From the NCBI GenBank assembly GCA_016196755.1, contig JACPXC010000062.1, forward strand, positions 45,043 through 109,042: a stretch of DNA of 64,000 bases, in the 5' to 3' direction. Numbering within the stretch: the stretch's first letter is position 1; each line of letters starts with the position of its first letter. The position numbers were made by a program, and so were the translations under genes. This document shows positions 5,207 through 48,863 of the stretch, piece after piece. The stretch comes from Elusimicrobiota bacterium. Its GTDB lineage: Bacteria; Elusimicrobiota; Elusimicrobia; UBA1565. The notes under the pieces are model-generated. The model did no database searches. It was not told where the DNA came from and saw only the letters and a list, made by a program, of their open reading frames with translations.

Positions 5207-5265
5207 GGGGTCAGACCTCGATGTTGCGTTTGTTGCGTTCGGGGTCAGACCTTCATGTTGCGTAA
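5191..5265. repeat. REP-like repeat cluster (tandem units built on a TGTTGCG heptamer and GGGGTCAGACC hairpin core)
   Basis: GGGGTCAGACCTCGATGTTGCG at 5207-5228 and GGGGTCAGACCTTCATGTTGCG at 5241-5262. TGTTGCG occurs at about 5196, 5222, 5231 and 5256. The histidine-kinase stop codon lies inside a partial unit (cttcctgttgcgTAAg). Confidence 0.6.
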
Positions 5266-5280
5266 GTGCCTTTTGTCGCC

Positions 5281-5309
5281 TTGACGAGCCAACGGCCGGG
5301 CCGTAAACT
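5281..5309 (+). promoter_or_regulatory. Sigma70-like promoter (TTGACG-17-TAAACT) for the response-regulator operon
   Basis: TTGACG at 5281-5286, TAAACT at 5304-5309 with 17-nt spacing, ATG at 5318. Confidence 0.4.
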
Positions 5310-5317
5310 ATCGCTCC

Positions 5318-5686
5318 ATGGCGGAAATACTCGTCGTCGATGATGAAGAGGATTACCGCCTCCTATTGCGGCACATCCTCGAGCGCGCTGGCCACAAGGT
5401 AAAGCTCGCCGACTGCGGCGAGGCAGGCCTAGCGGCCTACCACAAAGCGAAGCCTGACCTTCTCATACTAGACGCCAACATGCCGGACCTCGAGGGCTAC
5501 GAGGTCTGCAGGCAGCTCAGGTCCGCCGGGCACAAGACCCCGGTGATCTTCTGCACGGTCCGGTCCGCGGTATCGAAGGTAGCCGAAGGATTGCGCGCCG
5601 GAGGAGACGACTACGTCGTCAAGCCCTTCTCGCCGGAAGACCTCCTTGGGCGGGTGAAGGACGTCCTTTCTCGGCCCGGAAAATGA
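5318..5686 (+). CDS. Single-domain response regulator (CheY-like receiver)
   Basis: VVDDEED acidic pocket, phospho-acceptor Asp in LILDANMPDLEG, conserved Thr/Ser and Lys (VVKPF). Confidence 0.85.
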   Translation: MAEILVVDDEEDYRLLLRHILERAGHKVKLADCGEAGLAAYHKAKPDLLILDANMPDLEGYEVCRQLRSAGHKTPVIFCTVRSAVSKVAEGLRAGGDDYVVKPFSPEDLLGRVKDVLSRPGK

Positions 5687-6360
5687 GGAACCTGGACGTC
5701 GCCGTCGTGGACGGCGACGCCGGACGCCGAGAAGGATTGACGGCTATCCTCAAGTCGCGCGGTCACAAAGTAGCGAGCTACGCGACCGCTGGGCGATTCT
5801 TCGACGGTATGCTCGCGGAGCCGGCGCGGGCAGCATTCATTTCGATGGAACTGCCCGGCATGGATGGGAGGGAAGTCATCCGCGTACTGCGCGCGAACCC
5901 GGAATGCCGAGGCATGGTACTGATCGCGCTCTCGGCGGGCAGAAGGCGCCGCGAGGAGGTCCTCGCCGGGTTCGAAGCCGGGGCCGACGAGTTTCTCGAG
6001 GTCCCGTTCGACCCCGATTTCCTGACGGTACGATTGGAGTCGTTGCTCCGCGCCCGGCCGGCCGCCGCCGCGGCAAACATCTTCGACCTTGACGGCATCG
6101 CAATCGACTTAGATGCCCGTACCGTCACGGTCGCCGGAAAGCCGGTCAAGCTTACCCGCCTCGAATTCGACCTAGCCGCACATCTTGTCCGTCATAGAGG
6201 ACGCGTCCTCACGCGGGGAGCGCTTCTCGGCGCTGTATGGGGTACGAACGGTTCGAGCTCACGCACCGTCGACAAGCATGTCGAGGCGCTGCGCAGGAAG
6301 CTCCCTCCTTTGGCCAAGCGGCTCGACACCATCGTCAATGTCGGCTATCTGCTCCGCTAG
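5683..6360 (+). CDS. OmpR/PhoB-family winged-helix regulator with a degenerate (pseudo-)receiver domain
   Basis: C-terminal trans_reg_C motifs (LTRLEFDLAAHLVRHRGRVLTRGALLGAVWG...VDKHVEALRRKL). In the receiver, the phospho-acceptor position reads ISMELPGMDG (Asp to Ser) and the conserved Lys is Val (EVPFD). ATGA overlap with the upstream regulator. Confidence 0.75.
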   Translation: MRNLDVAVVDGDAGRREGLTAILKSRGHKVASYATAGRFFDGMLAEPARAAFISMELPGMDGREVIRVLRANPECRGMVLIALSAGRRRREEVLAGFEAGADEFLEVPFDPDFLTVRLESLLRARPAAAAANIFDLDGIAIDLDARTVTVAGKPVKLTRLEFDLAAHLVRHRGRVLTRGALLGAVWGTNGSSSRTVDKHVEALRRKLPPLAKRLDTIVNVGYLLR

Positions 6361-7154
6361 GTCGATTCCTGTTTTGCCCTTTTCTCCCTAGCGCGACTCG
6401 CGCAAGAACGGTCGCGCCTGAGGAATGAGGCCACATCGATCCCTTTCGCTCCCTGCCGCAGCGCTTCTTGGATGAAGCGCGCCCTTGCCTTGACGGCCGG
6501 GCCGGAACGATCGCGGCTCCGCAGTATGCCGGCCGGAAGGCCTTCCGCGCGTTCGACGCTGGCGATGATCGCCTCCAAATCGGCAGACGCCGACTGTGGC
6601 TCAGGAGCCCTTTCGGGTTCTTCCATGAACCGGTTGTAGGCCAGTACGGCCGCCGCTCTATCCAAGTCAAACAGCGAGAGTCCGAAGTCCATCTCAGCGA
6701 AGCCGTCCGGCACCCCTGTCGCATACGCGTTATGGCTAGACCACTTCCAATCTGAGGGCTTCTCGACTAAGCCGTGCCGGACGGGATTGCGGTGAATATA
6801 CCTCAAGACCTCCTGCACGTGAGCGTCTGAATGGCAGGGAAAGGCCTTGAACCGACCTTGAAAGACATGTCCAACGCGATCATGAGCCTTGTTGGATCTC
6901 ATCGCGAAAGAGGTCAGAGAGGCCTGTATCGCTCTCGAGATCGATTCCTCGAAGATACGGATTAAAAGGTGAAAATGATTCGGAATGAGGCAATAGGCGA
7001 GAAGGTCCGCGACAGGCAGCGACAATTCCTCCTTGAGCTTCTCCATGAACTTACCCCACTCGTCTTCGGCCTCGAACACCGTCTGCCTGCGATTGCCGCG
7101 GGAAATCACATGCATGACCGAACCGGGGACGAAGATCCTAGGAGGGCGTGCCAT
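6357..7154 (-). CDS. IS200-like Y1 HUH (RAYT-type) transposase with C-terminal DnaA-C-like HTH domain
   Basis: ORF 6357..7208, start taken at MARPPRIF. Motifs HVISRGNRRQTVF, LIPNHFHLLIR (HUH), HVFQGRFKA, RYIHRNPVRHG, followed by a DnaA C-terminal-like helix-turn-helix (ILRSRDRSGPAVKARARFIQEALRQ). Converges on the second response regulator with a 4-nt overlap. Confidence 0.8.
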   Translation of the reverse strand: MARPPRIFVPGSVMHVISRGNRRQTVFEAEDEWGKFMEKLKEELSLPVADLLAYCLIPNHFHLLIRIFEESISRAIQASLTSFAMRSNKAHDRVGHVFQGRFKAFPCHSDAHVQEVLRYIHRNPVRHGLVEKPSDWKWSSHNAYATGVPDGFAEMDFGLSLFDLDRAAAVLAYNRFMEEPERAPEPQSASADLEAIIASVERAEGLPAGILRSRDRSGPAVKARARFIQEALRQGAKGIDVASFLRRDRSCASRAREKRAKQEST

Positions 7155-7200
7155 AACATGTAATACGCTTATCCCCCCGATTTGGTTCCCTTTAAAGAAG

Positions 7201-7235
7201 CGCAACATCGAGGTCTGACCCCGAACGCAACAAGC
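7201..7235. repeat. REP-like repeat, inverted copy (22 nt identical to 5207-5228, 35 nt similar to 5229-5262)
   Basis: Reverse complement of 7201-7222 is GGGGTCAGACCTCGATGTTGCG; the flanking gcttgttgcgttc also matches. Lies in the 5' leader of the transposase, next to a TATAAT at 7236-7241. Confidence 0.6.
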
Positions 7236-7260
7236 TATAATGCCGCGTTGCGTCCCTCGC

Positions 7261-7350
7261 GGAGAGGTGCGTGAGTGGTTGAAACGAAACGACTGGAAAT
7301 CGTTTAGGGTGTAACAGCCCTCGGGGGTTCGAATCCCCCCCTCTCCGCCA
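7261..7350 (+). tRNA. tRNA-Ser (anticodon GGA), CCA encoded
   Basis: Hand-folded cloverleaf: acceptor GGAGAGG/CCTCTCC, anticodon loop CTGGAAA, long variable arm, T-arm GGGGGTTCGAATCCCCC, discriminator G plus CCA. Confidence 0.85.
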
Positions 7351-7381
7351 GTTCTTCATCATAGGATCCGGTGTTCCCATA

Positions 7382-7422
7382 GCCGAGCGGGTGCGTTTAG
7401 AGCGCGCCCGCTCGGCCTTTTT
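7382..7422 (+). terminator. Rho-independent terminator after tRNA-Ser
   Basis: Stem GCCGAGCGGG...CCCGCTCGGC followed by CTTTTT. Confidence 0.6.
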
Positions 7423-7487
7423 GGCGGGTACCGCAGGCGAGCGGAATATAAGGTATACTAATTATATTTAGTATTACTTTTTTATAT

Positions 7488-7516
7488 TTGACATACTTTA
7501 AGATATATGGTATACT
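7488..7516 (+). promoter_or_regulatory. Promoter (TTGACA-17-TATACT) with GTATAC palindromic operator-like repeats for the toxin-antitoxin operon
   Basis: Consensus -35 TTGACA at 7488-7493 and -10 TATACT at 7511-7516, inside a strongly AT-rich ~110-nt island. GTATAC repeated at about 7454 and 7510. RBS GGAGA lies 6 nt before ATG 7541. Confidence 0.5.
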
Positions 7517-7540
7517 TAGTTATAATCGTAGGAGATAAAA

Positions 7541-7771
7541 ATGGAAACCGGCGTCGTCACCATAAAGGGACAGGTTGTGATTCCGTCGAAAATCCGTCAT
7601 CGCCATCAGATCAAGAAAGGGACCAAGGTCTGCTTCATCGAACGCGGCGACGAGATCATCTTGAAGCCGGTCACCGACGAATACATCGACAAGCTGCGGG
7701 GGTCTCTGGGCACGAAAGGAGCCGTCCTCAGGTCCCTTATCGAGGAAAAGGGGCGCGAAAAGAAATTGTGA
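7541..7771 (+). CDS. AbrB/MazE/SpoVT-type antitoxin
   Basis: Swapped-hairpin motif TIKGQVVIPSKIRHRHQIKKG; 76 aa; stop overlaps the toxin start. Confidence 0.75.
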   Translation: METGVVTIKGQVVIPSKIRHRHQIKKGTKVCFIERGDEIILKPVTDEYIDKLRGSLGTKGAVLRSLIEEKGREKKL

Positions 7772-8175
7772 GCGGCAAGGTCTTGGACTCGTACGGAGTC
7801 ATCGCCTTCCTCGAGAATGAACCGGGAGCCGACAAGGTCGCTGAACTAATCAAGAGCGCCCGGGATAAGGACAGGCCCCTCCTCTTAAGCGTGGTGAACT
7901 GGGGAGAAGTCTATTACATCGTTCATCGCGCCGCGGGAAAAGAAGCCGCCGCCCGAACGATGCGGACGATCGACACGCTCCCGATCCAAGTCATTGAGGC
8001 GGATCGAACGCTCACGCAGATCGCCGCGGAGTTCAAATCCTCCGGAAAGATGTCCTACGCGGACTGTTTTGCGGCAGCTCTCGCCAAGGCTCGGAAGGCG
8101 GAACTCATAACCGGCGATCAGGAATTCAAGGCAGTAGAAGATGAGATCGAGATCCTCTGGCTTCCTAAAAAATGA
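7768..8175 (+). CDS. vapC: PIN-domain ribonuclease toxin (VapC-like)
   Basis: GTG at 7768 (GTGA overlap with the antitoxin stop). PIN acidic residues (LDSYGVIAF..E..., ...ITGDQEF). Confidence 0.7.
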   Translation: MSGKVLDSYGVIAFLENEPGADKVAELIKSARDKDRPLLLSVVNWGEVYYIVHRAAGKEAAARTMRTIDTLPIQVIEADRTLTQIAAEFKSSGKMSYADCFAAALAKARKAELITGDQEFKAVEDEIEILWLPKK

Positions 8176-8191
8176 GGCCCCTGAGCCGGAA

Positions 8192-9616
8192 ATGAACAAG
8201 AAGCCGACGCTGGCGCTGCCCCTGCTCGTGGGCTCCTCGGCCCTGGCGCTGTACCTTTCCCTCCCGTCGCTCGGCCACAACTTCGACGGCGTGGCCTGCG
8301 CCATCGCCGTCGAGCTGGGCGATTTCAAGCATCTCGTCCACGGCAACCACCTGGCCTACGGCCTGGCCGGGTTCGTCTTCCATCGCCTGGTCAACGCCCT
8401 CGGCCTGGCCCTGCCGGCGATCTGGGCGCTGCAGGTCATGGACTCCCTGCTCGGCGCGCTGTCGGCCGCCCTGTTCGCCCGCATGCTCCTGCGCCTGGGC
8501 CGGCCCGCCGGCGTGGCCGCGGCGGCCGGCATGGGACTGGCCGTGTCCTACGGCTGGTGGCTGCGTTCCGTCGACGCCCAGGTCTACCTGCTGGCCGCGC
8601 CGTTCATGGTCCTGGCCTTCGAGGAGGTTTTGGCCGAGCGCCCCCGGCCCCTGCGTCTGGCCGCCCTGCACACCGCCGCCATGCTCGTCCATTCGGTCCA
8701 CGTTTGCTTTACGCCGGTGGCCCTCTGGGCCCTCCTGCGCGCCGGCAAGGACTACGGCGAGTCGCGCGCCGGCCTGGGACGCTACCTGGCCTTCTGCTTT
8801 TTGGGCGTTCTGGCCGCCTATGCCGCGGCGGTGACGCTCTTGGTGCGGCCGGAAACGGTCGAGGACCTGCGCGTCTGGCTCTCCGGCAGCGCGGCGCTCG
8901 GCAACCAGCGCGACTTCCGGTTCATCCACGCCGCCTCGCTGGGCTCCGCGCTGGCCTGGTGGGGACGGGTGTCGCTCAAGGTCGTCTCGATCCGGCCGCT
9001 CCTCGGCCTGCCGCTCTGGGGCCTGGCGGCCTGGGGCTGGCTGGCCGGCGCGTCCCGCCGCGAGCGCGTCGCGGCGCTCGTCTGGGTGGCCGGCTACGCC
9101 CCCCTCCTCCTGGCCTACGAGCCGTGGAACACCGACTACCGGATCCTCGAGCTCATCCCGCTGTGGGCCTTGGCCGCCGCGGCGTTCTCACCCGAGCGCG
9201 CCCGCGGCGGCGCGCGGGCCTTGGCGTTCTACGCCGCCGCGCTCGGCGCGGTCAACGCCGCCGACGCCATCCTGCCGCTGTCGCGCCTCGCCGAGAACCC
9301 GCCGCTCGTGAAGACCCTCTGGCTGCGCCGCATCCTCCCCGAGGACGCCTGGGTCAGCGCCGCCGCCATCGACGAGGTCTACATCCCGTACTTCAGCCAT
9401 CGCCGCACGCTCAACCTGCGCTGGCACGAAGGCGACCCGGCCGGGCTGCGCCGGCGTCTCGACGGCCTGCTCGAGCGCGGCGAACCCGTGTTCGTGACCT
9501 CGGACCATCTGGCGGGCTGGCGGGAGGCCTTCGGCGGCTACGAGCTCCAGCACGCCGGGGAGCAGGACGGCGTCGTGCTCTACAGGTTGAAGGGGAAGCC
9601 CAAGGGCAGCTTGTAG
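8192..9616 (+). CDS. Polytopic membrane protein, putative GT-C-fold glycosyltransferase
   Basis: ORF 8141..9616 trimmed to ATG 8192 (MNKKPTLALPLLVGS). About 10 or more hydrophobic helices with a large C-terminal soluble domain. Confidence 0.4.
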   Translation: MNKKPTLALPLLVGSSALALYLSLPSLGHNFDGVACAIAVELGDFKHLVHGNHLAYGLAGFVFHRLVNALGLALPAIWALQVMDSLLGALSAALFARMLLRLGRPAGVAAAAGMGLAVSYGWWLRSVDAQVYLLAAPFMVLAFEEVLAERPRPLRLAALHTAAMLVHSVHVCFTPVALWALLRAGKDYGESRAGLGRYLAFCFLGVLAAYAAAVTLLVRPETVEDLRVWLSGSAALGNQRDFRFIHAASLGSALAWWGRVSLKVVSIRPLLGLPLWGLAAWGWLAGASRRERVAALVWVAGYAPLLLAYEPWNTDYRILELIPLWALAAAAFSPERARGGARALAFYAAALGAVNAADAILPLSRLAENPPLVKTLWLRRILPEDAWVSAAAIDEVYIPYFSHRRTLNLRWHEGDPAGLRRRLDGLLERGEPVFVTSDHLAGWREAFGGYELQHAGEQDGVVLYRLKGKPKGSL

Positions 9617-10404
9617 AAGAAGGTGATCATAGCACCCAGGCTCAGGTAGGGGCCGAAAGGGATCGGCTCCTGACGCTTGATCCGACCCGAGGCCAGGAGC
9701 CAGACCCCGTAGCCGGCCCCGACGAAGGAGGCCAGCATCAAGGTGTCGAAGGCGCCCAGCGCCCCGGTCCACGCCCCGACGCCGGCCAGGAGCTTGACGT
9801 CCCCGGCCCCCATCGCCTCGCGCTTGAAGAGCTTCTCGCCGGCGGCCGCCACGCCCCAGCACAAGGCCAGGCCGAAGACCGCTCCCCCGACCGACGCCCC
9901 GAGCCGGCCCCAGAACGCGCCACCCAGTCCCGCGTTGAGCGGCGAGAGCAGGATCCCCGCCGCGGCCAGGCCCAGGGAGAGCTCGTCGGGGATGAGGAAG
10001 GTGTCGCAGTCGATGAAGGCCACGCAGAGCAGGGCGATGAGCGCGGCCAAGGCGGCGGCGGCCCAGGCCCATTGCCCTTCCCAGTGCCGCCAGACCGCGG
10101 CGGCCAAGAGGCCCCCCAGGAGCTCGACGAGCGGGTAGCGCCAGGAGATGGGCTTTTCGCAGTGGCGGCAGCGGCCGCGCAGGAGGAGCCAGCTGAGCAC
10201 CGGCACGTTGTCGTAGAAGGCCACCGGGCGCCGGCAGCGCGGACAATGCGAGCCGGGGCGCACCAGCGAGCGGCCGCGCGGCAGGCGGTGGATCACGACG
10301 TTCGAGAAGCTCCCCAAGCAGAGCCCGGTCAGGACCCAGAACGCCCAGGCCGCGGTCTGGAAGGCGGCCGCCGAGGTCGGGTCTTGGAACGCGTTTGATA
10401 TCAT
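9580..10404 (-). CDS. pilD: Prepilin peptidase (A24 family, PilD-like)
   Basis: N-terminal zinc-binding CPRC...CRHC pair, catalytic-region motif GAGDVKLLA, multiple TM segments. Confidence 0.85.
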   Translation of the reverse strand: MISNAFQDPTSAAAFQTAAWAFWVLTGLCLGSFSNVVIHRLPRGRSLVRPGSHCPRCRRPVAFYDNVPVLSWLLLRGRCRHCEKPISWRYPLVELLGGLLAAAVWRHWEGQWAWAAAALAALIALLCVAFIDCDTFLIPDELSLGLAAAGILLSPLNAGLGGAFWGRLGASVGGAVFGLALCWGVAAAGEKLFKREAMGAGDVKLLAGVGAWTGALGAFDTLMLASFVGAGYGVWLLASGRIKRQEPIPFGPYLSLGAMITFFYKLPLGFPFNL

Positions 10405-10410
10405 CGGTCG

Positions 10411-11883
10411 GTGAGGCGAGCCTGGGCCGGTCTATTCTCCGCCGCGGCCGTGCTGTATTTGCTGGCCCGCGACGCCTACTGGGTCGGCTACTTCAACGAC
10501 GACGCATTCTATCTTATCGGAGCCCGGGCCCTTACCGAGGGGCGCTTCGCCGAGCTCAACCACCCCGGCCAGCCGCCGCTCATCCAATACCTGCCCGGCT
10601 ACCCCCTGCTCTTGGCCCCGCTCATGCCCTTCTGCGCGGCCTCGTGGCTGCCGGCCCAGCTCCTGAGCGTCCTCGTGGGCCTGAGCTCGGCGGCCGCCGC
10701 GGCCTGGGCCTTCGCCCCGGACCTCGACGAGGAAGGCCGCCTGCTGCTGGCCGCGCTCTGCCTCTTCAACCCGCTGGCCCTCAGCCTCTCCGGCGCCGTG
10801 CTGGCCGACGCCCCCTTCGCCTTGGCCGCGCTGCTCCTCGTCGGCACGGCGCGCCGGGCTTGGCCGCGGACCTCGCCCCGGGTCTGGGCGGCGCTGGGCG
10901 CCGCCGCCGGGGCGTCCGCTCTCATCCGCCCCAACGGCCTGGCCCTCATCCTGGCTTTGGCCGCCGCGTTGGCCTGGGAGCGGCGCGGGCGCGAGGCCGC
11001 CGCGGCGCTGGCGGCGGCCGCACTCGTCGTCGGCCCCTGGTTCCTGCGCAACGCGGCGGCGGGCGGGCACCCGCTGCTCTACGCCGCGGAGCTGGCCGGA
11101 CCGATCGAGGCCGCCCCATGGACGACATTGGGCGCGGCCGCCTCGCGGGCCGGGTTCTACCTCTCCGAGCTCTACGCGCGCGCGCTGTTCCGCTGGCCCT
11201 GGGGCGCCCCTCCCGCGGCGGCGGCGGCGGCCGCGGCGCTGGCCGGCTTGGCGGCCGCCGTGCTGGCCCTCACGCGCGGCGGCCTCTCCGGCGGCCGGCG
11301 CTTCGCCCTGCTCTCGGCGCTGGCGCTGTTCGGGCTCCTCTTGGCCTGGGACAAGCGCTCCACGCGCTACCTGCTCCCGCTCATCCCGTTGGCGGCGGCC
11401 TGGGGCCTGGCGGGCCTGGCAGGCCGGCGCGGGACGCGGCTGGCCGCCGCGGCCTTGGCGCTGGCCTCCTTCATAGTCCCGGCCCGCGCCATCCTGGCCG
11501 CCTCCCTACGCCCTGAGGCGCCGCCGGCGCGGGCGCCCGAGCGCACTTTCGCCTGGATCCGGGCCAACACCGCGCCCGGCGCGGTGTTCGCCTGCGAGCT
11601 CGACGGCCAGCTCTTCCTGCGCACCGGCCGCCGGAGCGTGACCCTGCCGCGCGGCGCCGACGGCCGAAATCTCCAGCTCTGGGCCGCCGGCTCGGGCGCG
11701 GATTTCCTGCTGGTCTCCCCCACCGCCGACATCCTGCGCACCACGCGCGGCGTCGGCCCCCACGACGCGGTGCCGGCCGCCGAGCGCCGGCGCGACGCCG
11801 GCCGAGCCTCCGTCCTCGAGCCGGTCTTCGAGGACCCCGGGGAAGGCACGGTGATATACACAAAAAAGACCCCCGGCCTTTAG
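10411..11883 (+). CDS. GT-C glycosyltransferase, ArnT/PMT-like (GT39/83-like)
   Basis: GTG start; first-loop YFNDDAFY acidic motif typical of ArnT/PMT-type GT-C enzymes; polytopic; Ala-rich. Confidence 0.55.
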   Translation: MRRAWAGLFSAAAVLYLLARDAYWVGYFNDDAFYLIGARALTEGRFAELNHPGQPPLIQYLPGYPLLLAPLMPFCAASWLPAQLLSVLVGLSSAAAAAWAFAPDLDEEGRLLLAALCLFNPLALSLSGAVLADAPFALAALLLVGTARRAWPRTSPRVWAALGAAAGASALIRPNGLALILALAAALAWERRGREAAAALAAAALVVGPWFLRNAAAGGHPLLYAAELAGPIEAAPWTTLGAAASRAGFYLSELYARALFRWPWGAPPAAAAAAAALAGLAAAVLALTRGGLSGGRRFALLSALALFGLLLAWDKRSTRYLLPLIPLAAAWGLAGLAGRRGTRLAAAALALASFIVPARAILAASLRPEAPPARAPERTFAWIRANTAPGAVFACELDGQLFLRTGRRSVTLPRGADGRNLQLWAAGSGADFLLVSPTADILRTTRGVGPHDAVPAAERRRDAGRASVLEPVFEDPGEGTVIYTKKTPGL

Positions 11884-11899
11884 GCCGAGGGTCTCTTTT
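11868..11899. terminator. Bidirectional rho-independent terminator
   Basis: GACCCCCGGCC-TTTA-GGCCGAGGGTC hairpin, followed by TCTTTTG on the plus strand and a T-run on the minus strand. Sits between convergent genes. Confidence 0.55.
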
Positions 11900-11916
11900 G
11901 ATCTTTTGGGACTAGC

Positions 11917-12369
11917 TCAGTACACCGTCCACTCGGTGCCCTTCGAGTCCGTGTGGGTACAGTTCACCCACAGCGTCCCGTAGTTGGCGTCCCCGGTGAC
12001 GTTGTTGTAGCGCCAGCCGCCCGTGCCGCCGCCCGTCTCGGCCAAGACCGAGTTGTTCGTGAACACCGCGCTGTCGGTGTGGTAGCTCGGAGCCTTCGCC
12101 TTCGGGATCGACGACATGTACTTGCCGTTGATCGTTATCGAAGCCGCGTTGAGCGGGTAGTAGCCTTCCATGTCGCCGTAGTAGATGCTCAGGGCCGACC
12201 GAATCGCGCCGAGGTTGCCCTTGGTCGCGCCTTCGTTCGACTTGCGGATCAGCTCAGCGAACTTCGGGATGGCGATAGCCGCCAAGATACCGATGATGGC
12301 GACCACGATCATCAACTCGATGAGCGTGAAGCCCCGCTTCGCCTTGCTGCTGTTGTTCAGGTTACGCAT
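11917..12369 (-). CDS. Type IV pilin / pseudopilin (N-terminal methylation motif)
   Basis: ORF 11917..12486 trimmed to MRNLNNSSKAKRGFTLIELMIVVAIIGILAAIAIPKF (class III signal, G-1/F+1/E+5). Strong RBS GGAGGGAGGACAAA precedes the ATG. Confidence 0.85.
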   Translation of the reverse strand: MRNLNNSSKAKRGFTLIELMIVVAIIGILAAIAIPKFAELIRKSNEGATKGNLGAIRSALSIYYGDMEGYYPLNAASITINGKYMSSIPKAKAPSYHTDSAVFTNNSVLAETGGGTGGWRYNNVTGDANYGTLWVNCTHTDSKGTEWTVY

Positions 12370-12477
12370 TTTGTCCTCCCTCCTTTGCGCCGTGATGATG
12401 AATTTAGGAGTGGATTTTTCGATACGGCGCTCATGGACGACGCCATGCACACCCTGAACATCCAAAGAACTGGTCAC

Positions 12478-12506
12478 AATATACACCCGCTACTTCAAAG
12501 TGTCAA
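12478..12506 (-). promoter_or_regulatory. Sigma70-like promoter (TTGACA-17-TATATT) upstream of the pilin gene
   Basis: The reverse complement reads TTGACActttgaagtagcgggtgTATATT. It lies inside the 3' end of the upstream GT-C gene. Confidence 0.35.
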
Positions 12507-13938
12507 GACGGTCATAGGTGACTTTAGTCCCGTCCACGACCTCGTACACCCTGCGCTCTCCGTCGGCGGACTCGAAGACGGTCCGAAATCCGGCCCCCAA
12601 GAGGCGCGCCTCCCAGGCCGCCAGGCCGCGCGAGGCCGGGAACGCCCCGCCCAACGAGGACCCCAGGTCGCCCGGCCTTTCCCACAGAACCCAGCGGACC
12701 TTGAGGCGGGCCAGGGCCGCGGGGTCGGAGGCCTGCGGCAGCGGCACGAAAGGTCGGCCGGTATGCCAGGCCGAGCGGGCGAAATGCAGGGCGGCCACCA
12801 GGCCCTCCGAAGGCAGGGTCCTCAGGAACGCGTAGGTCTCGAGCGGGGGCGCCTCGGCGCCCCGGGCCAGCGCCGGTCCCTGGATGGGCAGGGGCAGGGC
12901 CGCCAGCGCGGCGGCCCCCCAAGCCGCTCGGCGGCCGGGGACGCCCAGGGCGCGCACACCCTCCCAGGCGGCCAGCAAGGCGAAAGGGAGCAGCGGCGGG
13001 AGGTAGCGCTCGTACCACCACGGCCAGGCCGCGTGCAGGGCCGCCGAGCCGAGCAAGTAGAGGCCGGCGGCGTCGTAGGGACGGCGGCCAAATCGCCGGA
13101 CCAGGCCGAGACAGACCAGCGCCAGCAGCAGCGCCCCGGCGCCGAACGCCGCCGCCGCGGGACCTCCCGCCGGGGTCAGCGTCCCCCCCCATAGCGCGGG
13201 GACTTCCCGCAGGTTGTGGAGCACGGCCGCGGGCCAAGCCGACCAGCCCGCGCCGGCCAAGGCGGCCGCGGCCTCGCCTTCATCGGAGAAACCACCGTGC
13301 CGCGAGGCCCAGACCCGCCACGCCGCCCAAGCCAGGACCGGCAGACCGGCCGCCCAGGCCGCGTCACGCCGGCGCCCCCCCTTCCATAGCGCGACCGCGC
13401 AGGCCGGGGCCAAAGGGAGGAGGGCCGGGCGCACGAGGTAGCCCACGGCGGCCAGCGCCCCGACCAGGGGGCCCGAGCCGGCGCGGCGGCGGTCGGCTAG
13501 AAACAGCGCCGCCAACGCCGCGGCCAGGCCGGGCAGCTCCGGCATGACGACGCCGGCGCGCGAGAGCACGAGCGGGTTGAGCGCGAAAAGCGCCGTCACC
13601 GCCAGGGCCGCGCGCGCGCCCGAGCGGCGCCGCGCCCAGAGGAAGACCAGGAGGTCGCAGACCACCAGCCACAAGAACGCCCAGGCCTGGTAGCCCAAGG
13701 GGATGTCGCCCGAGACGGCCGCCGCCGGCGTCAGCAGCAGCGGCCAGCCCGGCGTGTACTGGCCAAACGGCGGATCGCCGGGGACCACCTCGAGCCCATA
13801 GCGGCCATGCAGCAGGGAGCGCGAGAGCAGTGCGTAGATCGCATCGTCGCCCTCGGCGCCCAGCCAGCCCGCGGGGAACCAGGCCGTCTGGGCGGCGGCT
13901 AGGAGCAGGACGGCCATGATCGCGCCGCGGTTCTTCAT
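12490..13938 (-). CDS. GT-C glycosyltransferase, ArnT/PMT-like (GT39/83-like)
   Basis: ORF 12490..14019 trimmed to MKNRGAIMAVLLL. First-loop motif GDDAIYALL; polytopic membrane protein. Confidence 0.5.
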   Translation of the reverse strand: MKNRGAIMAVLLLAAAQTAWFPAGWLGAEGDDAIYALLSRSLLHGRYGLEVVPGDPPFGQYTPGWPLLLTPAAAVSGDIPLGYQAWAFLWLVVCDLLVFLWARRRSGARAALAVTALFALNPLVLSRAGVVMPELPGLAAALAALFLADRRRAGSGPLVGALAAVGYLVRPALLPLAPACAVALWKGGRRRDAAWAAGLPVLAWAAWRVWASRHGGFSDEGEAAAALAGAGWSAWPAAVLHNLREVPALWGGTLTPAGGPAAAAFGAGALLLALVCLGLVRRFGRRPYDAAGLYLLGSAALHAAWPWWYERYLPPLLPFALLAAWEGVRALGVPGRRAAWGAAALAALPLPIQGPALARGAEAPPLETYAFLRTLPSEGLVAALHFARSAWHTGRPFVPLPQASDPAALARLKVRWVLWERPGDLGSSLGGAFPASRGLAAWEARLLGAGFRTVFESADGERRVYEVVDGTKVTYDRLDTLK

Positions 13939-13992
13939 TCCGAAAAACCGCCCCCCACGCAGGTCCGCGCGTGAGGGGCGAGCTGAAAAGAT

Positions 13993-14076
13993 TGGGCAAG
14001 GGGGGACTTGAACCCCCAAGGGCTTTCACCCACACGGTCCTGAGCCGTGCGCGTCTGCCAGTTCCGCCACCTGCCC
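13993..14076 (-). tRNA. tRNA-Leu (anticodon CAG), CCA not encoded
   Basis: Reverse-complement cloverleaf: acceptor GGGCAGG/CTTGCCC (one G-U pair), anticodon loop CTCAGGA, long variable arm, T-arm GGGGGTTCAAGTCCCCC. Confidence 0.8.
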
Positions 14077-14103
14077 GACGACAGCACTGCCTTGACGGCG
14101 AAG

Positions 14104-14112
14104 TGCTAGAAT
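14104..14112 (+). promoter_or_regulatory. Extended -10 promoter TGcTAGAAT upstream of smpB
   Basis: TG-n-TAGAAT lies 18 nt before ATG 14131. Confidence 0.4.
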
Positions 14113-14130
14113 CGGATTTTACCGGATTCA

Positions 14131-14613
14131 ATGGCCAAGCGCAAGGACGACGACGACGGACGGCTCCTCATCGGGGAGAACCGCAAGGCACGCCACCACT
14201 ACGAGATCGTGGAGGTGATCGAGGCCGGGCTCCAGCTCAAGGGGCCCGAGGTCAAGTCCCTGCGCGCGCGCCAGATCTCCTTCGAGGGCGCCTTCGCGCG
14301 GGTCACCGACGGAGAGGCCTTCCTCCACAACCTCCACATCGCGGCCTACAAGCAGAACACCCTCGAGGACATCTCCTCGACCCGCACCCGCAAGCTCCTG
14401 CTCAAGCGCCGCCAGATCGAGAAGCTGGCGACGGCCCAGGACCAGAAGGGCATGACCCTGATCCCGCTCGAGATCTACTTCAAGCGCGGCTGGGCCAAGG
14501 TGGCGGTAGCGGTCGGCAAGGGCAAGCGCGGCCCCGACAAGCGCGACGAGCTCCGCCGGCGCGACGCCACGCGCGAACTGGCGCGCTCCTTCAAAGGCAA
14601 GTTCAAGGCGTGA
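14131..14613 (+). CDS. smpB: SsrA-binding protein SmpB
   Basis: ENRKARHHYEI, LxGxEVKSLR and C-terminal basic tail KRGPDKRDELRRRD are diagnostic of SmpB. Confidence 0.9.
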   Translation: MAKRKDDDDGRLLIGENRKARHHYEIVEVIEAGLQLKGPEVKSLRARQISFEGAFARVTDGEAFLHNLHIAAYKQNTLEDISSTRTRKLLLKRRQIEKLATAQDQKGMTLIPLEIYFKRGWAKVAVAVGKGKRGPDKRDELRRRDATRELARSFKGKFKA

Positions 14614-16208
14614 CGCCGTTCGTGCTCTTCGCCGCGCTGGGGGCCGGCGGCTTGCACCAGCCTTGGCTCTGGACGCCCTTCGCCGTGCTGAGCTGGGGAG
14701 CGGCCGCCGCCCTCCTCCCCCGCGCCCGGCTTCCCGGCGGCCCGCTCTGGGGCGCGCTCCTCGCCTGGGCCGCCGCCAGCGCCCTGCTCTCTCCCGAGCC
14801 GCTCATCTCGCTCTCCGCCTTCGCCTACGCCGCGACGGCGTTTCTTTGGCTCTCGCTGGGCGCAACGCGCGCGGGCGCCGACGAGCGCCGCTGGGGGGCC
14901 GCGCTGCTCATGGCCGCGGGGCCGTTGGCCGCGGCGGCGGCGATCCTCATCGACGTGCCCGATTACCCCGCCGTCGGCCTGCTCTTCCCTTATTACAACT
15001 ACACCGCGGCCTTGGTGGCCGCCGCGGGCGCCGCGGCCGCGGCCGGTCCGGCCGCCGCGACGGCCGTCCCCGCCGCGGCGCTCTATCTCGTCTGGGCCGG
15101 CTCGCGCGGCGGCTTGGCGGCGCTGGCCGCCGGCACGGCCGTGGCGCTGTGGCGCGGCGGCCGGCGGAAGACGGTCGTGCTGGGCGCGGCGGCCGCGCTG
15201 GCCTTCCTGGCCGGCTCCTCGACGCCGCGCGACATCCTCCTCAAGGCCGATAAGGCCGGGGCCCACGCCCGTCCGGCGATCTGGCGCGCGGCGCTCCAGG
15301 TGGCGGCCGAGAGCCCGTGGCTCGGCGAAGGGCCGGGCCGGTTCGGCCGCGGCTTCCTGCGCCACCAAGTTCCCGCCCCCCCCTCCCTTCGCCCGACCCG
15401 CTTTTCGCTGACGACCGCGCATGCCCATTCCGGCCCGCTCGACGTGTTGGCCGAAGTCGGCTTCCCCGGAGCCGTCCTGCTGACGGCGGCGTTGCTGGCG
15501 CTCTGGCGAGCGCGTCCGGTCGTCACGGACCCCGACCGCGAGGCACTGCTGACCGGGGCCGTCGCCCTCGGGACGCAGGCTCTCGGCGACAGCATCCTCG
15601 TCCTTCCCGCGCTGGCCTGGCTGTTCGCCTGGCTCCTGGGTGCCGCCTGCGCCTCGGAGAACGCGCAGGTCCCGCGGCTTCCCGAGTCGGCGCGCCGCGC
15701 CTTCCTGCTCCTGGGTCTGGGCCTGGCCGCCGCGGCCTGGTGGCCGGGCTGGGCGGTCTCGTCCTGGCGGGGCGCGGAACCCGAAGCCGCCGTGACCGTG
15801 GCCCCCGCCGACGCCGGCCTGTGGCAGGACATCGCCCGGCGGCGTCTCGGAGCCGGCGACGCGCGCGGCGGCCTGGCGGCCTTGGCGCGCGCCGCCGAGC
15901 TGCGCCCCTTCGACGTCCGGCCGCGGATCATGGCCGCCGAGGTCCTGCGCTCCGGCGGCGCCTGGCACTTCGTCTTGGAAGCCGCGTCGGAAGTCGTCGC
16001 CCTCGAGCCGGCTTGCGGCCAAGGCCGGATCCTCAAGGCCGAGGCCCTGCTCCGCCTAGGCCGCCCCGCCGAGGCCCGCGCCGAGTTGGCCGCCCTGCCG
16101 TCTTCCGGCGCCAAGCCCCTGACCGACCTGCGTCGGGACAACCCCGAAGGCCTGGTCCTAGGCTACGATCCCGCCCGCCTAGCCGCCCTCCAGTCAGAAC
16201 TCAAATAG
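14610..16208 (+). CDS. Wzy_C (O-antigen ligase/polymerase-like) membrane protein with C-terminal TPR domain
   Basis: GTG 14610 overlapping the smpB stop. Wzy_C motif SLTTAHAHSGPLDVLAEVG; 10 or more TM helices; C-terminal TPR-like repeats. The track ORF 13971.. is an artefactual 5' extension across tRNA-Leu and smpB. Confidence 0.6.
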   Translation: MTPFVLFAALGAGGLHQPWLWTPFAVLSWGAAAALLPRARLPGGPLWGALLAWAAASALLSPEPLISLSAFAYAATAFLWLSLGATRAGADERRWGAALLMAAGPLAAAAAILIDVPDYPAVGLLFPYYNYTAALVAAAGAAAAAGPAAATAVPAAALYLVWAGSRGGLAALAAGTAVALWRGGRRKTVVLGAAAALAFLAGSSTPRDILLKADKAGAHARPAIWRAALQVAAESPWLGEGPGRFGRGFLRHQVPAPPSLRPTRFSLTTAHAHSGPLDVLAEVGFPGAVLLTAALLALWRARPVVTDPDREALLTGAVALGTQALGDSILVLPALAWLFAWLLGAACASENAQVPRLPESARRAFLLLGLGLAAAAWWPGWAVSSWRGAEPEAAVTVAPADAGLWQDIARRRLGAGDARGGLAALARAAELRPFDVRPRIMAAEVLRSGGAWHFVLEAASEVVALEPACGQGRILKAEALLRLGRPAEARAELAALPSSGAKPLTDLRRDNPEGLVLGYDPARLAALQSELK

Positions 16209-16224
16209 AAAGTTAAAAAGTTAA

Positions 16225-16253
16225 GGTGCCTGGCACCGATACTTTTTACTTTT
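16225..16253. terminator. Bidirectional terminator hairpin GGTGCC-T-GGCACC with flanking T/A runs
   Basis: Perfect 6-bp stem followed by GATACTTTTTACTTTT, between convergent genes. Confidence 0.55.
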
Positions 16254-17046
16254 AGAAACGGATGCCGATGCCGGAGTCCATGCCGGCCTGGCGGTTGGTG
16301 TAGGTGGCGGCGAGGTGGAGGTAGACGTAGGCCTTGGGGCGCATCGAGACGCCGAGCGTACCGCGCGGGACCATCGTGGAGGCGGTCTCGCCCACCATCG
16401 TGGGGTCGAGCCTCGGGACGGCGCGGACCACGACGCGCGTGCGGTCCACGCCCAAGCCCAAGTACGGAGTGATGAGCTTGTACTGGACCGAGGTGACGAG
16501 GTTCAGTCCCATGTGGCTGGCCGAGAAGTCGCGGTGCGCCACGGAATGGCCGGCCCAGCAGAGCAGGAATTGGGGCGTCAGCGGCTTGTCGGTGGCCTTG
16601 CGGACCGAGTAGCGCAGGCCCCCGCCGGCGATGGTGATTCCTTGGAAGCTGACGCCGCGGATGAAGCCGTCGAGGCTGAAGGGAAGGCCGATCTCGGCCT
16701 GCAGCCAGGGTAGGCCGAAGGCCTTGACCCCGCGGCCGCGCAGGACTCGGTCGTCCTTGTCGGGGGACATCACCATACCGCCGCGCACGCCTATGTCGAA
16801 GCCGGAGAAGCCCAGCGAGCGGCCGCTATGAAAGGTAGCGGCCCCAAGGACGCCGCCCAAGTCGCGCGCGAAGGGCTTTAGGGCTCCGCGATCGACGAAT
16901 TCCTGGAAACCACCGTATTGGTCCTGAGAAAAAGCATTATTAGGATTGAATAAAATAGAAGCCAGGACCAGAAAAACCGCGAAAACGACCCTTCCTAGGA
17001 GGTTATCCACAGGCTTATCCCCATTGTCCACAATGGATGTTAACAT
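16252..17046 (-). CDS. Outer-membrane beta-barrel protein (hypothetical)
   Basis: Signal-like N-terminus, alternating amphipathic strands, C-terminal Phe (GIGIRF). Confidence 0.45.
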   Translation of the reverse strand: MLTSIVDNGDKPVDNLLGRVVFAVFLVLASILFNPNNAFSQDQYGGFQEFVDRGALKPFARDLGGVLGAATFHSGRSLGFSGFDIGVRGGMVMSPDKDDRVLRGRGVKAFGLPWLQAEIGLPFSLDGFIRGVSFQGITIAGGGLRYSVRKATDKPLTPQFLLCWAGHSVAHRDFSASHMGLNLVTSVQYKLITPYLGLGVDRTRVVVRAVPRLDPTMVGETASTMVPRGTLGVSMRPKAYVYLHLAATYTNRQAGMDSGIGIRF

Positions 17047-17801
17047 TTTGTGACTTGGCGCTCGTAAGCCAGCCTAAGGCCCTGCAAAGTCAGGTCCGGG
17101 ACGTGCTTCGCCCCCGGAAGGCGCTTGGCGAACAGCGGCGCCAGCCCTCCGGTCAAGATGACCCGCGCCTCCGGAGTACGCATCTCGCGCAGGCTCTCTT
17201 TCAGCACGCGCTCGATCATGCCGAGATAGCCCCAGTAGAGGCCGGCCTGGATGCATTCGACCGTGTCTTTTCCGATGACGCGCCGCGTCGGGACGATACG
17301 AACCTCGGGGAGCTTCGCGGTGTGCAGGGCCAAGGCTTTCGCGGCCAGCCTCGGGCCCGGCAGGATGGCGCCGCCCAGGTACTCGCCGCGCCGCGACAGA
17401 CAGTCGAAGGTCGTCGCGGTGCCGAAGTCGACGACGACGGCCGGCAGGCCGCAGAGCTCGCGCGCGGCCAGCGCATTGAGGACGCGGTCTGCGCCGACCT
17501 GGCTCGGCCGGCGCACCGCCAGCTTGAGCCCCAACGGCGTCCCCGGCCCCACCTCCAGCGGCTTCTGGCCCAAAAGGCGCCCCGCCGCGAGCAGGACCGG
17601 ACGCAGGGCCGGCACGACGGTGGCGAACACGAAGCCCGAGAGCCGGGGCCCCGCGCGGCGGCGCGCGAACGCCGCCACGGCGCGGGCTTGGAACGCCCCT
17701 CTGGGGGGATGCGTCTCGACGCGCCCAAGCGCGGCGAGACGCTCCCCCCGGAAGAGGCCCAGCGTCAGGTTCGTGTTGCCGGCGTCGACCGCTAGCAGCA
17801 C
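17040..17801 (-). CDS. coaX: Type III pantothenate kinase
   Basis: GTG start; motifs LLAVDAGNTN and VVVDFGTATTFD; ASKHA fold. Confidence 0.85.
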   Translation of the reverse strand: MLLAVDAGNTNLTLGLFRGERLAALGRVETHPPRGAFQARAVAAFARRRAGPRLSGFVFATVVPALRPVLLAAGRLLGQKPLEVGPGTPLGLKLAVRRPSQVGADRVLNALAARELCGLPAVVVDFGTATTFDCLSRRGEYLGGAILPGPRLAAKALALHTAKLPEVRIVPTRRVIGKDTVECIQAGLYWGYLGMIERVLKESLREMRTPEARVILTGGLAPLFAKRLPGAKHVPDLTLQGLRLAYERQVTKC

Positions 17802-17803
17802 GC

Positions 17804-18736
<933 letters not shown>

Positions 18737-45448: not shown

Positions 45449-48863
<3,415 letters not shown>

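Follow-up and report, generated by a model that had tools for sequence, protein, structure and literature searches.

A candidate locus for O-glycosylation of the major type IVa pilin in an uncultivated Elusimicrobia bacterium

Introduction

In the genome of an uncultivated Elusimicrobia bacterium, the genes for a major pilin and its prepilin peptidase lie among genes for polytopic membrane glycosyltransferases, which raises the question of whether these enzymes modify the pilin, a broader set of periplasmic proteins or an envelope glycan. We analyzed the locus within a 64-kb stretch of DNA (hereafter, the window), which the original prediction had described as a candidate locus for glycosylation of the pilin or other proteins. 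This description is supported by the genomic context and by the predicted folds, and periplasmic O-glycosylation of the major pilin, similar to that performed by TfpW and TfpO/PglL, appears to be the best reading of the locus, with a probability of roughly 0.6.

Organization of the locus

All elements named in the original prediction were recovered at or near their expected positions, and their identities are established: a major pilin, the peptidase PilD, three GT-C enzymes and one Wzy_C ligase-type enzyme (Table 1). Given that the strands of the protein-coding genes alternate (+ - + - - + +), the locus is not a single operon. The pilD gene is convergent with poly1 (37-bp overlap of the 3' ends), as expected for the third polytopic GT-C-like protein, and divergent from the GT-C A gene across a gap of 6 bp. 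The GT-C B gene is located directly upstream of the pilin gene and is co-directional with it, so that two GT-C genes flank the pilin gene as predicted; the Wzy_C gene, however, does not adjoin it but is separated by GT-C B, a tRNA gene and smpB, at a distance of 2.2 kb. The GTG start codon of the Wzy_C gene (14610) shares a 4-bp overlap with the stop codon of smpB, and the gene is translationally coupled to smpB rather than to the pilin gene.

The open reading frame of GT-C B at full length spans 12490-14019 (-), but translation probably begins at the ATG at 13938, since 13948-14076 is taken up by the tRNA gene and a terminator. The 64-kb window contains no members of the two GT-C families other than these three genes; because of this scarcity, and because the same components recur in varied orders in related genomes (see below), the clustering exceeds that expected by chance. 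No polyprenyl-phosphate sugar synthase was found within the window.

Table 1. Genes and regulatory elements of the pilin locus (positions in the window)
Feature	Coordinates	Strand	Description and evidence
poly1, GT-C-fold membrane glycosyltransferase	8192..9616	+	474 aa; AlphaFold model; TMEM260-like/DUF2723-related
PilD, prepilin peptidase/N-methyltransferase	9580..10404	-	A24_N_bact E 6.2e-36; Peptidase_A24 E 1.6e-17
GT-C A	10411..11883	+	490 aa; GT-C fold by structure prediction; convergent with pilin gene
Intrinsic terminator	11865..11894	-	Hairpin and T-run just 3' of pilin stop; overlaps end of GT-C A
Major type IVa pilin	11917..12369	-	150-aa precursor; N_methyl E 4.8e-10; NCBIfam pilin models
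Pilin promoter and 5' UTR	12370..12506	-	Conserved in 9 loci
GT-C B	12490..13938	-	PMT_2 22.1 bits; paralogue of GT-C A (29% identity)
tRNA-Leu(CAG)	13993-14076		Between GT-C B and smpB
smpB	14131-14613		Between tRNA-Leu and Wzy_C gene
Wzy_C/TPR protein, WaaL/PglL-type ligase or oligosaccharyltransferase	14610..16208	+	Wzy_C 62 bits; TPR_19

The major pilin

The pilin precursor contains a G/F cleavage site, E5 and a single cysteine; its N-terminus is matched by the Myxococcus PilA equivalog model, and profile comparison matches the pilin to both Geobacter PilA-N and M. xanthus PilA. An alignment of 18 orthologues revealed a hypervariable loop (residues ~100-118) in which Ser, Thr, Gly and Ala are abundant, together with a C-terminal motif, [CS]-[ST]-x-x-D-[ST]-K, that is conserved. 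Every one of the 18 sequences has Ser or Thr at two positions near the C-terminus, so that potential acceptor residues of the kind sought there are present, in addition to those in the loop.

The pilin transcript is monocistronic and has its own promoter (TTGACA-17-TATATT, 12506..12478), which is the sole sigma-70 match (11/12) within 8000-16400. The 5' UTR contains a conserved hairpin with arms at 12430-12425 and 12392-12387 that are supported by covariation, and the hairpin loop carries an anti-SD sequence (12410-12406) opposite the SD (12384-12380).

Membrane glycosyltransferases with the GT-C fold

Structure modelling predicts the GT-C fold for poly1 and GT-C A, and alignment extends this assignment to GT-C B. 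The poly1 protein, which is identical (100%) to the NCBI protein HYZ75_18850 of a metagenome-assembled genome, produced no hit reaching the threshold in a Pfam search; nevertheless, 14 of its 49 homologues match the TMEM260-like family PF11028. Its AF2 model (pLDDT 93.6) is most similar in Foldseek to ArnT (E 1e-6, TM-score 0.66), with further matches to STT3, DPY19, ALG12, PglB and Pmt4, and its profile aligns with that of the GT-C A family over the full length (96.8% probability in hhalign). GT-C B aligns with the GT-C A family over its full length as well (hmmsearch E 1e-130), and retains each of the residues that are invariant there (D, D, RP and RY).

The first-loop DD motifs ascribed to the two enzymes that flank the pilin are present in both, as YFNDDAFY in the first periplasmic loop of GT-C A (invariant D30 and D31) and GDDAIYAL in GT-C B, and the first loop of poly1 carries an invariant NFDGVAC motif (D32), followed at the C-terminus of the protein by a small alpha/beta domain. 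The acidic first-loop residues and the other GT-C signature positions are invariant among 18-49 homologues; the catalytic-type residues are retained.

The proposed relationship to PMT-type enzymes holds for the fold, as modelled for GT-C A and poly1, but not at the profile level, where the PMT_2 scores of 23.6 and 22.1 bits are below the Pfam gathering threshold of 26.1. The fold search, in which ArnT is the top structural match, does not separate protein-modifying from lipid-modifying GT-Cs, and the specific label of a GT39 O-mannosyltransferase is not established. The combination of a match to ArnT or peptidoglycan-related families with lipid-acceptor residues and a pilin devoid of C-terminal Ser/Thr, which would speak against pilin modification, was not observed.

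The Wzy_C/TPR protein and its paralogue

The Wzy_C assignment is solid (62 bits), whereas the PglL-specific part of the prediction found no counterpart, with no match to PglL_A (PF15864) or Wzy_C_2 in the profile search. The protein retains invariant R167, R222, H274 and P237-x-x-G-x-G, with the Arg/Arg/His residues spaced as the catalytic residues of WaaL and PglL, and its profile matches the WaaL structure 7tpg (E 2.3e-14). The protein also has an additional transmembrane helix and a C-terminal tail of approximately three TPR repeats, and genuine TPR proteins are likewise matched by its profile; the tail is predicted to be periplasmic on the basis of its hydropathy and of the positive-inside rule.

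Another Wzy_C gene (39323-40780) is located beside an ABC-transporter (Wzm/Wzt) glycan locus, and hydropathy and charge analysis indicates the same tail architecture in both paralogues, so that either may be WaaL. This second protein could be the LPS ligase, in which case the first would be available to act on a protein. A TPR tail on a GT-C or Wzy_C enzyme suggests that the enzyme has a protein partner.

Gene order and linkage in related genomes

The protein families of the locus are confined to Elusimicrobia. The order poly1-PilD-GT-C A-pilin-(GT-C B)-SmpB-Wzy_C/TPR recurs within the clade of the window (loci L001, L009, L010, L015, L021/L054 and L091), including L021, where the pilin gene is inverted yet still adjoins GT-C A. 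In five other loci (L045, L051, L068, L071 and L073), poly1, PilD and the pilin gene are linked in that order and a GT-C B-like gene lies upstream, and, according to the poly1 tree, the poly1-PilD linkage is ancestral. Given that smpB, coaX and mdh are as syntenic as the pilin-locus genes in this clade, synteny alone is weak evidence, and conservation within the clade may reflect inherited order.

In distant relatives (42-52% GC), however, the same components are assembled in other operon-like, co-directional orders: GT-C, GT-C with TPR, a Dpm1/ArnC/GtrB-like GT2, pilin, Wzy_C with TPR and PilD in L040; GT-C, pilin, Wzy_C(+TPR) and PilD in L042, with a 4-bp overlap between the last two; a YfhO-like GT-C with a 4-bp overlap with the pilin gene in L026; the pilin gene between a TMTC-like GT-C with TPR (437 aa, WDD motif) and a PMT_2 GT-C in L014; and pilMNOPQ followed by Wzy_C and Wzy_C with TPR in L093. 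Altogether, four different GT-C subfamilies adjoin the orthologous pilin. The adjacency noted in the window is therefore conserved rather than absent in related genomes, and the linkage across rearrangements, which is established, goes beyond inherited synteny. Among the loci with sufficient flanking sequence, a pilin gene is located within 4 kb in 6 of the 22 GT-C loci; approximately two thirds to three quarters of the GT-C family members have no pilin or PilD gene nearby.

Comparison with known systems

Judging by its described features, a close analogy to the GT-Cs of the window is TfpW, the GT-C arabinosyltransferase/oligosaccharyltransferase of Pseudomonas aeruginosa group IV strains, which is likewise encoded beside the pilin gene (pilA), is polytopic, carries DDX in its first periplasmic loop and is best modelled on ArnT. 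The C-terminal TPR of TfpW is shared by the second GT-C of L040 and the 437-aa protein of L014, whereas the window enzymes (474-490 aa) have a small alpha/beta domain in its place. Unlike the single TfpW, the window enzymes are three paralogues of an Elusimicrobia-restricted lineage, and the window showed no genes of a D-arabinofuranose pathway.

The Wzy_C protein shares with TfpO/PilO and PglL the Wzy_C domain, the Arg/Arg/His residues, P-x-x-G-x-G in a periplasmic loop and a location outside any LPS locus; the position of tfpO directly downstream of the pilin gene is matched by the orthologues in L040 and L042. It differs from them in the additional helix and TPR tail, the lack of PglL_A and Wzy_C_2 hits, and the distance of its smpB-coupled gene from the pilin gene; moreover, the window pilin ends in Tyr and lacks the C-terminal Ser that TfpO uses. 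From WaaL, with which it shares the profile match and the catalytic-type residues, it is set apart by the same helix and tail and by its location outside LPS genes; the gene beside the glycan export locus is that of its paralogue.

ArnT (GT83, undecaprenyl-phosphate-L-Ara4N:lipid A transferase) is the best structural match of the GT-Cs, including the small periplasmic C-terminal domain, but the identity is only 13-14%, the family profile has no ArnT match in PDB, and the partners are pilin, PilD and Wzy_C/TPR rather than an arn operon. TMEM260, TMTC1-4 and PMT, the eukaryotic protein O-mannosyltransferases, are dedicated protein-acceptor GT-Cs (PMC10214176). The likeness to TMEM260 comes from the poly1 homologues, whereas poly1 itself falls below every Pfam threshold; the WDD motif and TPR of TMTC1-4 are matched by the L014 GT-C; and Pmt4 and Pmt1/2 are among the structural matches of the window GT-Cs, which have no MIR domain.

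Proposed mechanism and alternative explanations

Taken together, the locus is probably best explained as a conserved Elusimicrobia neighborhood in which the major type IVa pilin is matured and modified; we infer the acceptor, the sugar and its donor, and the acting enzyme. Under this scenario, the pilin would be transcribed alone from a strong promoter, its N-terminal helix would enter the inner membrane with the globular domain in the periplasm, and PilD would cut the leader at Gly-1/Phe+1 and then methylate the new N-terminus. The membrane-anchored pilin would be O-glycosylated on its periplasmic domain by at least one locally encoded enzyme. The three GT-Cs would each transfer a single sugar from a polyprenyl-phosphate-sugar donor by means of the acidic motif of the first loop (DD; D32 in poly1), which faces the periplasm, as TfpW, PMT and TMEM260 do, whereas the Wzy_C enzyme, its TPR tail docking the protein acceptor, would transfer en bloc a preassembled undecaprenyl-diphosphate-linked glycan, as TfpO and PglL do. 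The likely target sites would be the surface loop, with its hypervariable Ser/Thr/Gly-rich sequence, and the pair of conserved Ser/Thr positions near the C-terminus.

A less likely but substantial alternative is modification of envelope glycolipids or polysaccharides, with the GT-Cs acting as ArnT- or Gtr-type enzymes on lipid A, LPS core, O-antigen or another glycan, the Wzy_C proteins as WaaL-type ligases or polymerases, and the proximity to pilin and PilD representing inherited order. The WaaL match, the equal synteny of smpB, coaX and mdh, and the many family members away from pilins are compatible with this explanation, as is the production of LPS-type glycans by the organism, seen from a GT9 heptosyltransferase (55022-56026) and the Wzm/Wzt locus. 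It is at odds with the regrouping of the set in distant genomes in tight co-directional arrays with overlapping start and stop codons, the four GT-C subfamilies beside the orthologous pilin, the TPR tails and the lack of adjoining arn-type or LPS-core genes in the window.

A general periplasmic O-glycosylation system comparable to the broad-spectrum PglL of Neisseria, with many envelope targets and the pilin as a minor substrate or none, appears improbable: the repeated adjacency to or overlap with pilin, PilD or pilMNOPQ genes resembles the dedicated TfpO, TfpW and A. baylyi PglL-ComP systems, even though PglL-type enzymes may be broad-spectrum and need no linkage to a pilin gene, coupling links the Wzy_C gene to smpB, a housekeeping gene, and the families are represented in many contexts other than pilin loci. 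It is least probable that the polytopic proteins only resemble glycosyltransferases and, lacking catalytic activity, assist in assembling the pilus or stabilizing the pilin. Non-enzymatic accessory genes do adjoin pilA in Pseudomonas (the TfpX/Y/Z class; PMC11841053), but the invariance of the acidic first-loop and GT-C signature positions argues for activity, as does the Dpm1-like donor synthase that is encoded in the L040 cluster and near paralogues elsewhere.

Organization of the pilin locus

The gene map was built from an ORF listing with GC3 filtering, combined with Pfam, NCBIfam, ARAGORN and Rfam (see the table); the GC content of the window is about 70%. All the elements named in the original prediction were recovered by ORF and Pfam mapping of 8192-16208, together with a tRNA-Leu gene and smpB, which the original inventory had overlooked. 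Given that the coding strand alternates from gene to gene, the locus is a neighborhood rather than an operon.

Features of the pilin locus and its surroundings, in window coordinates
Feature	Positions	Strand	Remarks
HAMP-HisKA histidine kinase, two response regulators (one OmpR-type)	3893-6360
Low-GC segment	6357-8175		GC 0.57
IS200-like Y1 transposase	6357-7208	-
tRNA-Ser	7261-7350
PIN-domain protein	within 7507-8175
poly1, polytopic protein	8192-9616	+	no Pfam match
poly1/pilD overlap	9580-9616		37 bp, 3' ends
PilD, prepilin peptidase	9580-10404	-	A24_N_bact E 6e-36; Peptidase_A24 E 1.6e-17
GT-C A	10411-11883	+	YFNDDAFY
Pilin	11917-12369	-	N_methyl E 4.8e-10
Pilin mRNA leader	12370-12471	-
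Shine-Dalgarno sequence	12384-12380		AGGAG
Leader hairpin arms	12430-12425, 12392-12387
Anti-Shine-Dalgarno, hairpin loop	12410-12406		CUCCU
Pilin promoter	12506-12478		TTGACA-17-TATATT
GT-C B	12490-13938	-	GDDAIYAL
Terminator-like hairpin	13981-13948		at tRNA-Leu
tRNA-Leu(CAG)	13993-14076	-
smpB	14131-14613	+
Wzy_C/TPR protein	14610-16208	+	Wzy_C 62 bits; TPR_19
DUF6588 protein	16252-17046	-	hydrophobic N-terminal segment
Glycan locus	18812-39272		20 kb
Second Wzy_C gene	39323-40780		tail of ~146 aa
tRNA-Ala	40793-40877
PilB/MshE-like ATPase	45445-47244	-	T2SSE + MshEN

The distance from the end of GT-C A to the pilin stop codon is 33 bp; on the other side, GT-C B lies upstream of the pilin, its end separated from the start codon by 120 bp. 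The pilin gene is an independent transcription unit. Its promoter is the sole near-consensus sigma-70 match within 8000-16400, its Shine-Dalgarno sequence is strong, and it has an intrinsic terminator of its own. Its mRNA leader contains a conserved hairpin with compensatory changes in 5 of 6 pairs across 14 loci. The loop of this hairpin carries an anti-Shine-Dalgarno sequence able to pair with the Shine-Dalgarno sequence, and pairing in this second helix reaches 94%, one of the pairs being compensatory. The hairpin, which has no matching Rfam family (a scan of 7000-18000 returned tRNAs only), may be a translational control element.

Two gene overlaps recur in the related Elusimicrobia loci with which the window was compared (L001, L014 and so on). 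The first 4 bp of the Wzy_C/TPR gene, from its GTG start, are also the last 4 bp of smpB with its stop codon (GTGA, 14610-14613), as in L001 (10296-10299) and L091 (8001-8004), so the gene for this membrane ligase is translationally coupled to that for the trans-translation factor. The convergent poly1 and pilD genes overlap at their 3' ends, and comparable overlaps of about 21-37 bp are found in L001, L047, L048, L051, L053 and L055; the two genes may interfere with each other by antisense or transcriptional effects.

The pilin

The 14-kDa protein is a type IVa major pilin, with a signal peptide of class III, cleaved at a G/F site and accompanied by E5, and a hydrophobic N-terminal helix. The segment GFTLIELMIVVAI is invariant among 18 orthologues, in which the whole N-terminal half is strongly conserved, and in profile comparison the N-terminus most resembles those of Geobacter PilA-N and M. 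xanthus PilA. Conservation of the pilin greatly exceeds that of its neighbors, with 75% identity where GT-C A has 41%. A C-terminal disulfide-bonded D-region of the kind found in type IVa pilins is excluded given the single Cys, a position at which L040 and L042 have Ser.

Candidate Ser/Thr acceptor sites, for which the original prediction proposed to check the C-terminal region, are present among the 18 orthologues in two forms, namely a conserved C-terminal motif [CS]-[ST]-x-x-D-[ST]-K, with two positions that are invariably Ser or Thr, and a hypervariable, indel-rich loop with abundant Ser, Thr, Gly, Ala, Asp and Asn (DSAVFTNNSVLAETGGGTGG in the window). N-glycosylation was considered and rejected: the window pilin has three N-x-S/T sequons, but the orthologues do not keep them.

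The GT-C proteins

All three putative glycosyltransferases of the original prediction were upheld, two by their modeled fold and GT-C B by full-length alignment to GT-C A. GT-C A and GT-C B are paralogues with 29% identity that share the invariant residues D30, D31, R173-P174 and R319-Y320; D30 and D31 are invariant across 18 sequences, GT-C B included. The AlphaFold model of GT-C A (pLDDT 89.7, pTM 0.90) has Foldseek matches to GT-C enzymes only, including STT3 (E 2e-8), ArnT (TM-score 0.61), DPY19, ALG9, AftA, PimE, PglB and Pmt4. The model of poly1, a protein 100% identical to HYZ75_18850 of an Elusimicrobia MAG (164.6-kb contig), also adopts a GT-C fold (pLDDT 93.6, ArnT TM-score 0.66). 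In a profile-profile comparison with hhalign, poly1 and the GT-C A family align from end to end (96.8% probability, E 2.6e-10), and NFDGVAC of poly1 pairs with FNDDAFY; D32 of poly1 is invariant across 49 homologues, 14 of which weakly match the Pfam TMEM260-like family. These proteins have a polytopic GT-C transmembrane fold, and the acidic positions of their first extracytoplasmic loop are conserved. The modeled fold leaves the acceptor undefined.

The proposed PMT-like affinity stood in part: GT-C A and GT-C B match PMT_2 with 23.6 and 22.1 bits, which is below the gathering threshold of 26.1, although some homologues exceed it. Pfam detected neither PF02366 nor a luminal MIR domain like that of eukaryotic PMTs in the GT-C proteins of the window, and in the models the C-terminal part is limited to an alpha/beta domain of about 100 aa. 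Given the sub-threshold scores and the absence of the MIR domain, membership in the PMT/GT39 O-mannosyltransferases is not supported. A search of the GT-C A family profile against all PDB chains returned nothing useful, and NCBIfam gave only far sub-threshold matches for the GT-C and Wzy_C proteins.

The Wzy_C/TPR protein

In the Wzy_C domain of this ligase/oligosaccharyltransferase-type protein, all 19 sequences share R222 and H274, at least 90% have R167, and P237-x-x-G240-x-G242 is retained, so that the periplasmic-loop Arg, Arg and His typical of the family are all present. Judging by spacing, R167, R222 and H274 would correspond to R215, R288 and H338 of WaaL and to R224, R298 and H349 of PglL. 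Homology to WaaL is apparent from the family profile, which matches the solved structure 7tpg (E 2.3e-14); a search of all PDB chains with the single sequence had no useful result. Among the matches for the tail are genuine TPR proteins. Hydropathy and charge distribution suggest an extra transmembrane helix after the WaaL-like core, which would put the TPR in the periplasm.

The gene lies 2.2 kb from the pilin gene, with GT-C B, tRNA-Leu and smpB intervening, and outside LPS loci. A second Wzy_C paralogue, which has the same architecture with an extra helix and a helical tail, is the copy that adjoins a Wzm/Wzt locus and would be the more natural LPS ligase of the two. The long ORF in which it is contained (39323-41035) overruns a tRNA-Ala gene, so the real gene is shorter. 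Between mdh and this second gene lies an ABC-transporter-dependent glycan locus encoding Bac_transf, GT4, GT2, GT8, two radical SAM/B12 enzymes, MBOAT, methyltransferases and Wzm/Wzt; it looks like an insertion or variable island because mdh directly precedes the second Wzy_C gene in L001 and L091.

Gene neighborhoods in related genomes

In the searches made, the three enzyme families are confined to Elusimicrobia. The gene order of the window recurs in L001, L009, L010, L015, L021/L054 and L091, and a related order (GT-C B-like, poly1, PilD, pilin, smpB) is found in L045, L051, L068, L071 and L073. The pilin/GT-C grouping, the conservation of which the original prediction proposed to check, thus recurs in relatives, and it does so also in rearranged clusters. 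[quoted passage not shown] In L093, pilMNOPQ is followed by Wzy_C and Wzy_C+TPR genes. Members of four GT-C subfamilies, as well as the Wzy_C/TPR protein, are thus drawn to the same pilin or pilus genes.

The poly1-PilD pair occurs in 17 of 48 metagenome loci, and, among loci with enough flanking sequence, a pilin or PilD gene is close by in only 6 of 22 GT-C loci and 8 of 24 poly1 loci; the compared loci are phylogenetically non-independent and all these counts are descriptive only. A neighbor-joining tree suggests that poly1 and PilD were already linked in the ancestor and that one subclade has lost this link.

The L040 GT2 is closest to dolichol-phosphate mannose synthase, ArnC and GtrB (DPMS 5mlz, E 1e-9), and Dpm1-like GT2 genes lie near paralogues in eight further loci. 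No polyprenyl-phosphate sugar synthase of the Dpm1/GtrB/ArnC type was found in the 64-kb window, where the GT2 at 21322-22320 does not match the L040 query. Also rejected were the small genes downstream of distant GT-C homologues in L002 and L005, which are not pilins, and the 472-aa protein following Wzy_C/TPR in L093, which is not a GT-C.

Predicted function and alternatives

The locus appears to be involved in periplasmic O-glycosylation of the membrane-anchored pilin, to which we assign a probability of roughly 0.58; the original proposal to this effect gains support from the folds, the motifs and the linkage that persists across rearrangements. The gene identities, folds, conserved motifs and linkage on which this prediction draws are what the analysis shows. 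Under this scenario, the pilin, processed by PilD and still anchored in the membrane, would be modified in the periplasm, with the GT-C enzymes using polyprenyl-phosphate-sugar donors and the Wzy_C/TPR enzyme using a diphosphate-linked oligosaccharide and holding the protein through its TPR; what we infer is the identity of acceptor and sugar, how the enzymes share the work, and the TPR topology.

Taken alone, synteny of the window order is weak evidence for this assignment, since it extends just as far to smpB, coaX and mdh. The synteny of such housekeeping genes, together with ArnT being the top structural match, supports a rival role in which envelope glycolipids are modified in the manner of ArnT, Gtr or WaaL and the gene order is simply inherited. 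The low fractions of loci with a nearby pilin or PilD gene likewise count against a pilin link, and the rearranged clusters of distant genomes (42-52% GC) are stronger evidence for it than the window order. On balance, glycolipid modification is possible at distinctly lower odds than pilin glycosylation. A general O-glycosylation system with many targets seems improbable, and we consider it highly improbable that these are inactive accessory proteins.

The putative pilin glycosylation locus resembles the TfpW (GT-C) and TfpO/PglL (Wzy_C) pilin systems in its proposed mode of action, not in demonstrated membership of either family. TfpW is a GT-C with DDX in periplasmic loop 1 that is encoded immediately beside the major pilin gene, and GT-C A and GT-C B likewise carry a loop-1 DD and adjoin the pilin. 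Unlike TfpW, with its large C-terminal periplasmic TPR domain, the GT-C proteins of the window lack TPR, which is present in some relatives (the second GT-C of L040, a 437-aa protein of L014 and P0020/P0021). Genes for PglL homologues are located beside that of the pilin substrate, outside LPS loci, in 21 of 31 cases; comparable adjacency is seen in L040 and L042, where Wzy_C is immediately downstream, and in L093, where it follows pilMNOPQ, but not in the window with its distance of 2.2 kb. Unlike PglL, the window Wzy_C protein has no PglL_A motif (PF15864, no match at E <= 0.01), and unlike the TfpO substrate, the window pilin has no C-terminal Ser.

Among glycosylation loci linked to a pilin, this one is best regarded as a new variant specific to Elusimicrobia; the literature searched contained no account of pilin glycosylation in Elusimicrobia or of pilin enzymes of the Wzy_C+TPR type. 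It is a doubtful proposition that several GT-C subfamilies (PMT_2-, TMEM260-, TMTC+TPR- and YfhO-like) and a TPR-tailed Wzy_C oligosaccharyltransferase are dedicated to one pilin through two pathways, stepwise from polyprenyl-phosphate and en bloc from diphosphate-linked donors, with poly1 as a bacterial, substrate-specific TMEM260 counterpart beside PilD. Pilin glycosylation, chiefly known from Proteobacteria, shapes adhesion, phage resistance and evasion of immunity or predators, and TfpW is, to our knowledge, the sole GT-C enzyme that acts on a pilin. If the prediction is correct, the GT-C mechanism reaches a largely uncultivated phylum, a first functional handle is gained on the bacterial proteins related to TMEM260 and TMTC, O-mannosyltransferases of eukaryotes, and a new class of Wzy_C+TPR enzymes, possibly useful for glycoengineering, comes into view.

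Other genes in the surroundings

The competence genes comM and dprA adjoin pilin/GT-C clusters of distant Elusimicrobia in L014 (4617-9855), L026 (8403-13661) and L002 (1599-2471), a hint that the pilus might serve DNA uptake. The histidine kinase and response regulator genes upstream of poly1 adjoin it in L001 too, similar regulators flank the L093 pilus cluster, and regulation of the pilin locus by these proteins is possible. The low-GC segment with the transposase, tRNA-Ser and PIN-domain genes is probably a small mobile insertion, since L001 has no such segment separating its response regulators from poly1. The DUF6588 gene, the product of which possibly has a signal peptide, is conserved as the next gene after Wzy_C/TPR in most of the syntenic loci. 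The PilB/MshE-like secretion ATPase is encoded about 33 kb from the pilin, amid genes for methylmalonyl-CoA mutase, MeaB and carboxyltransferase.
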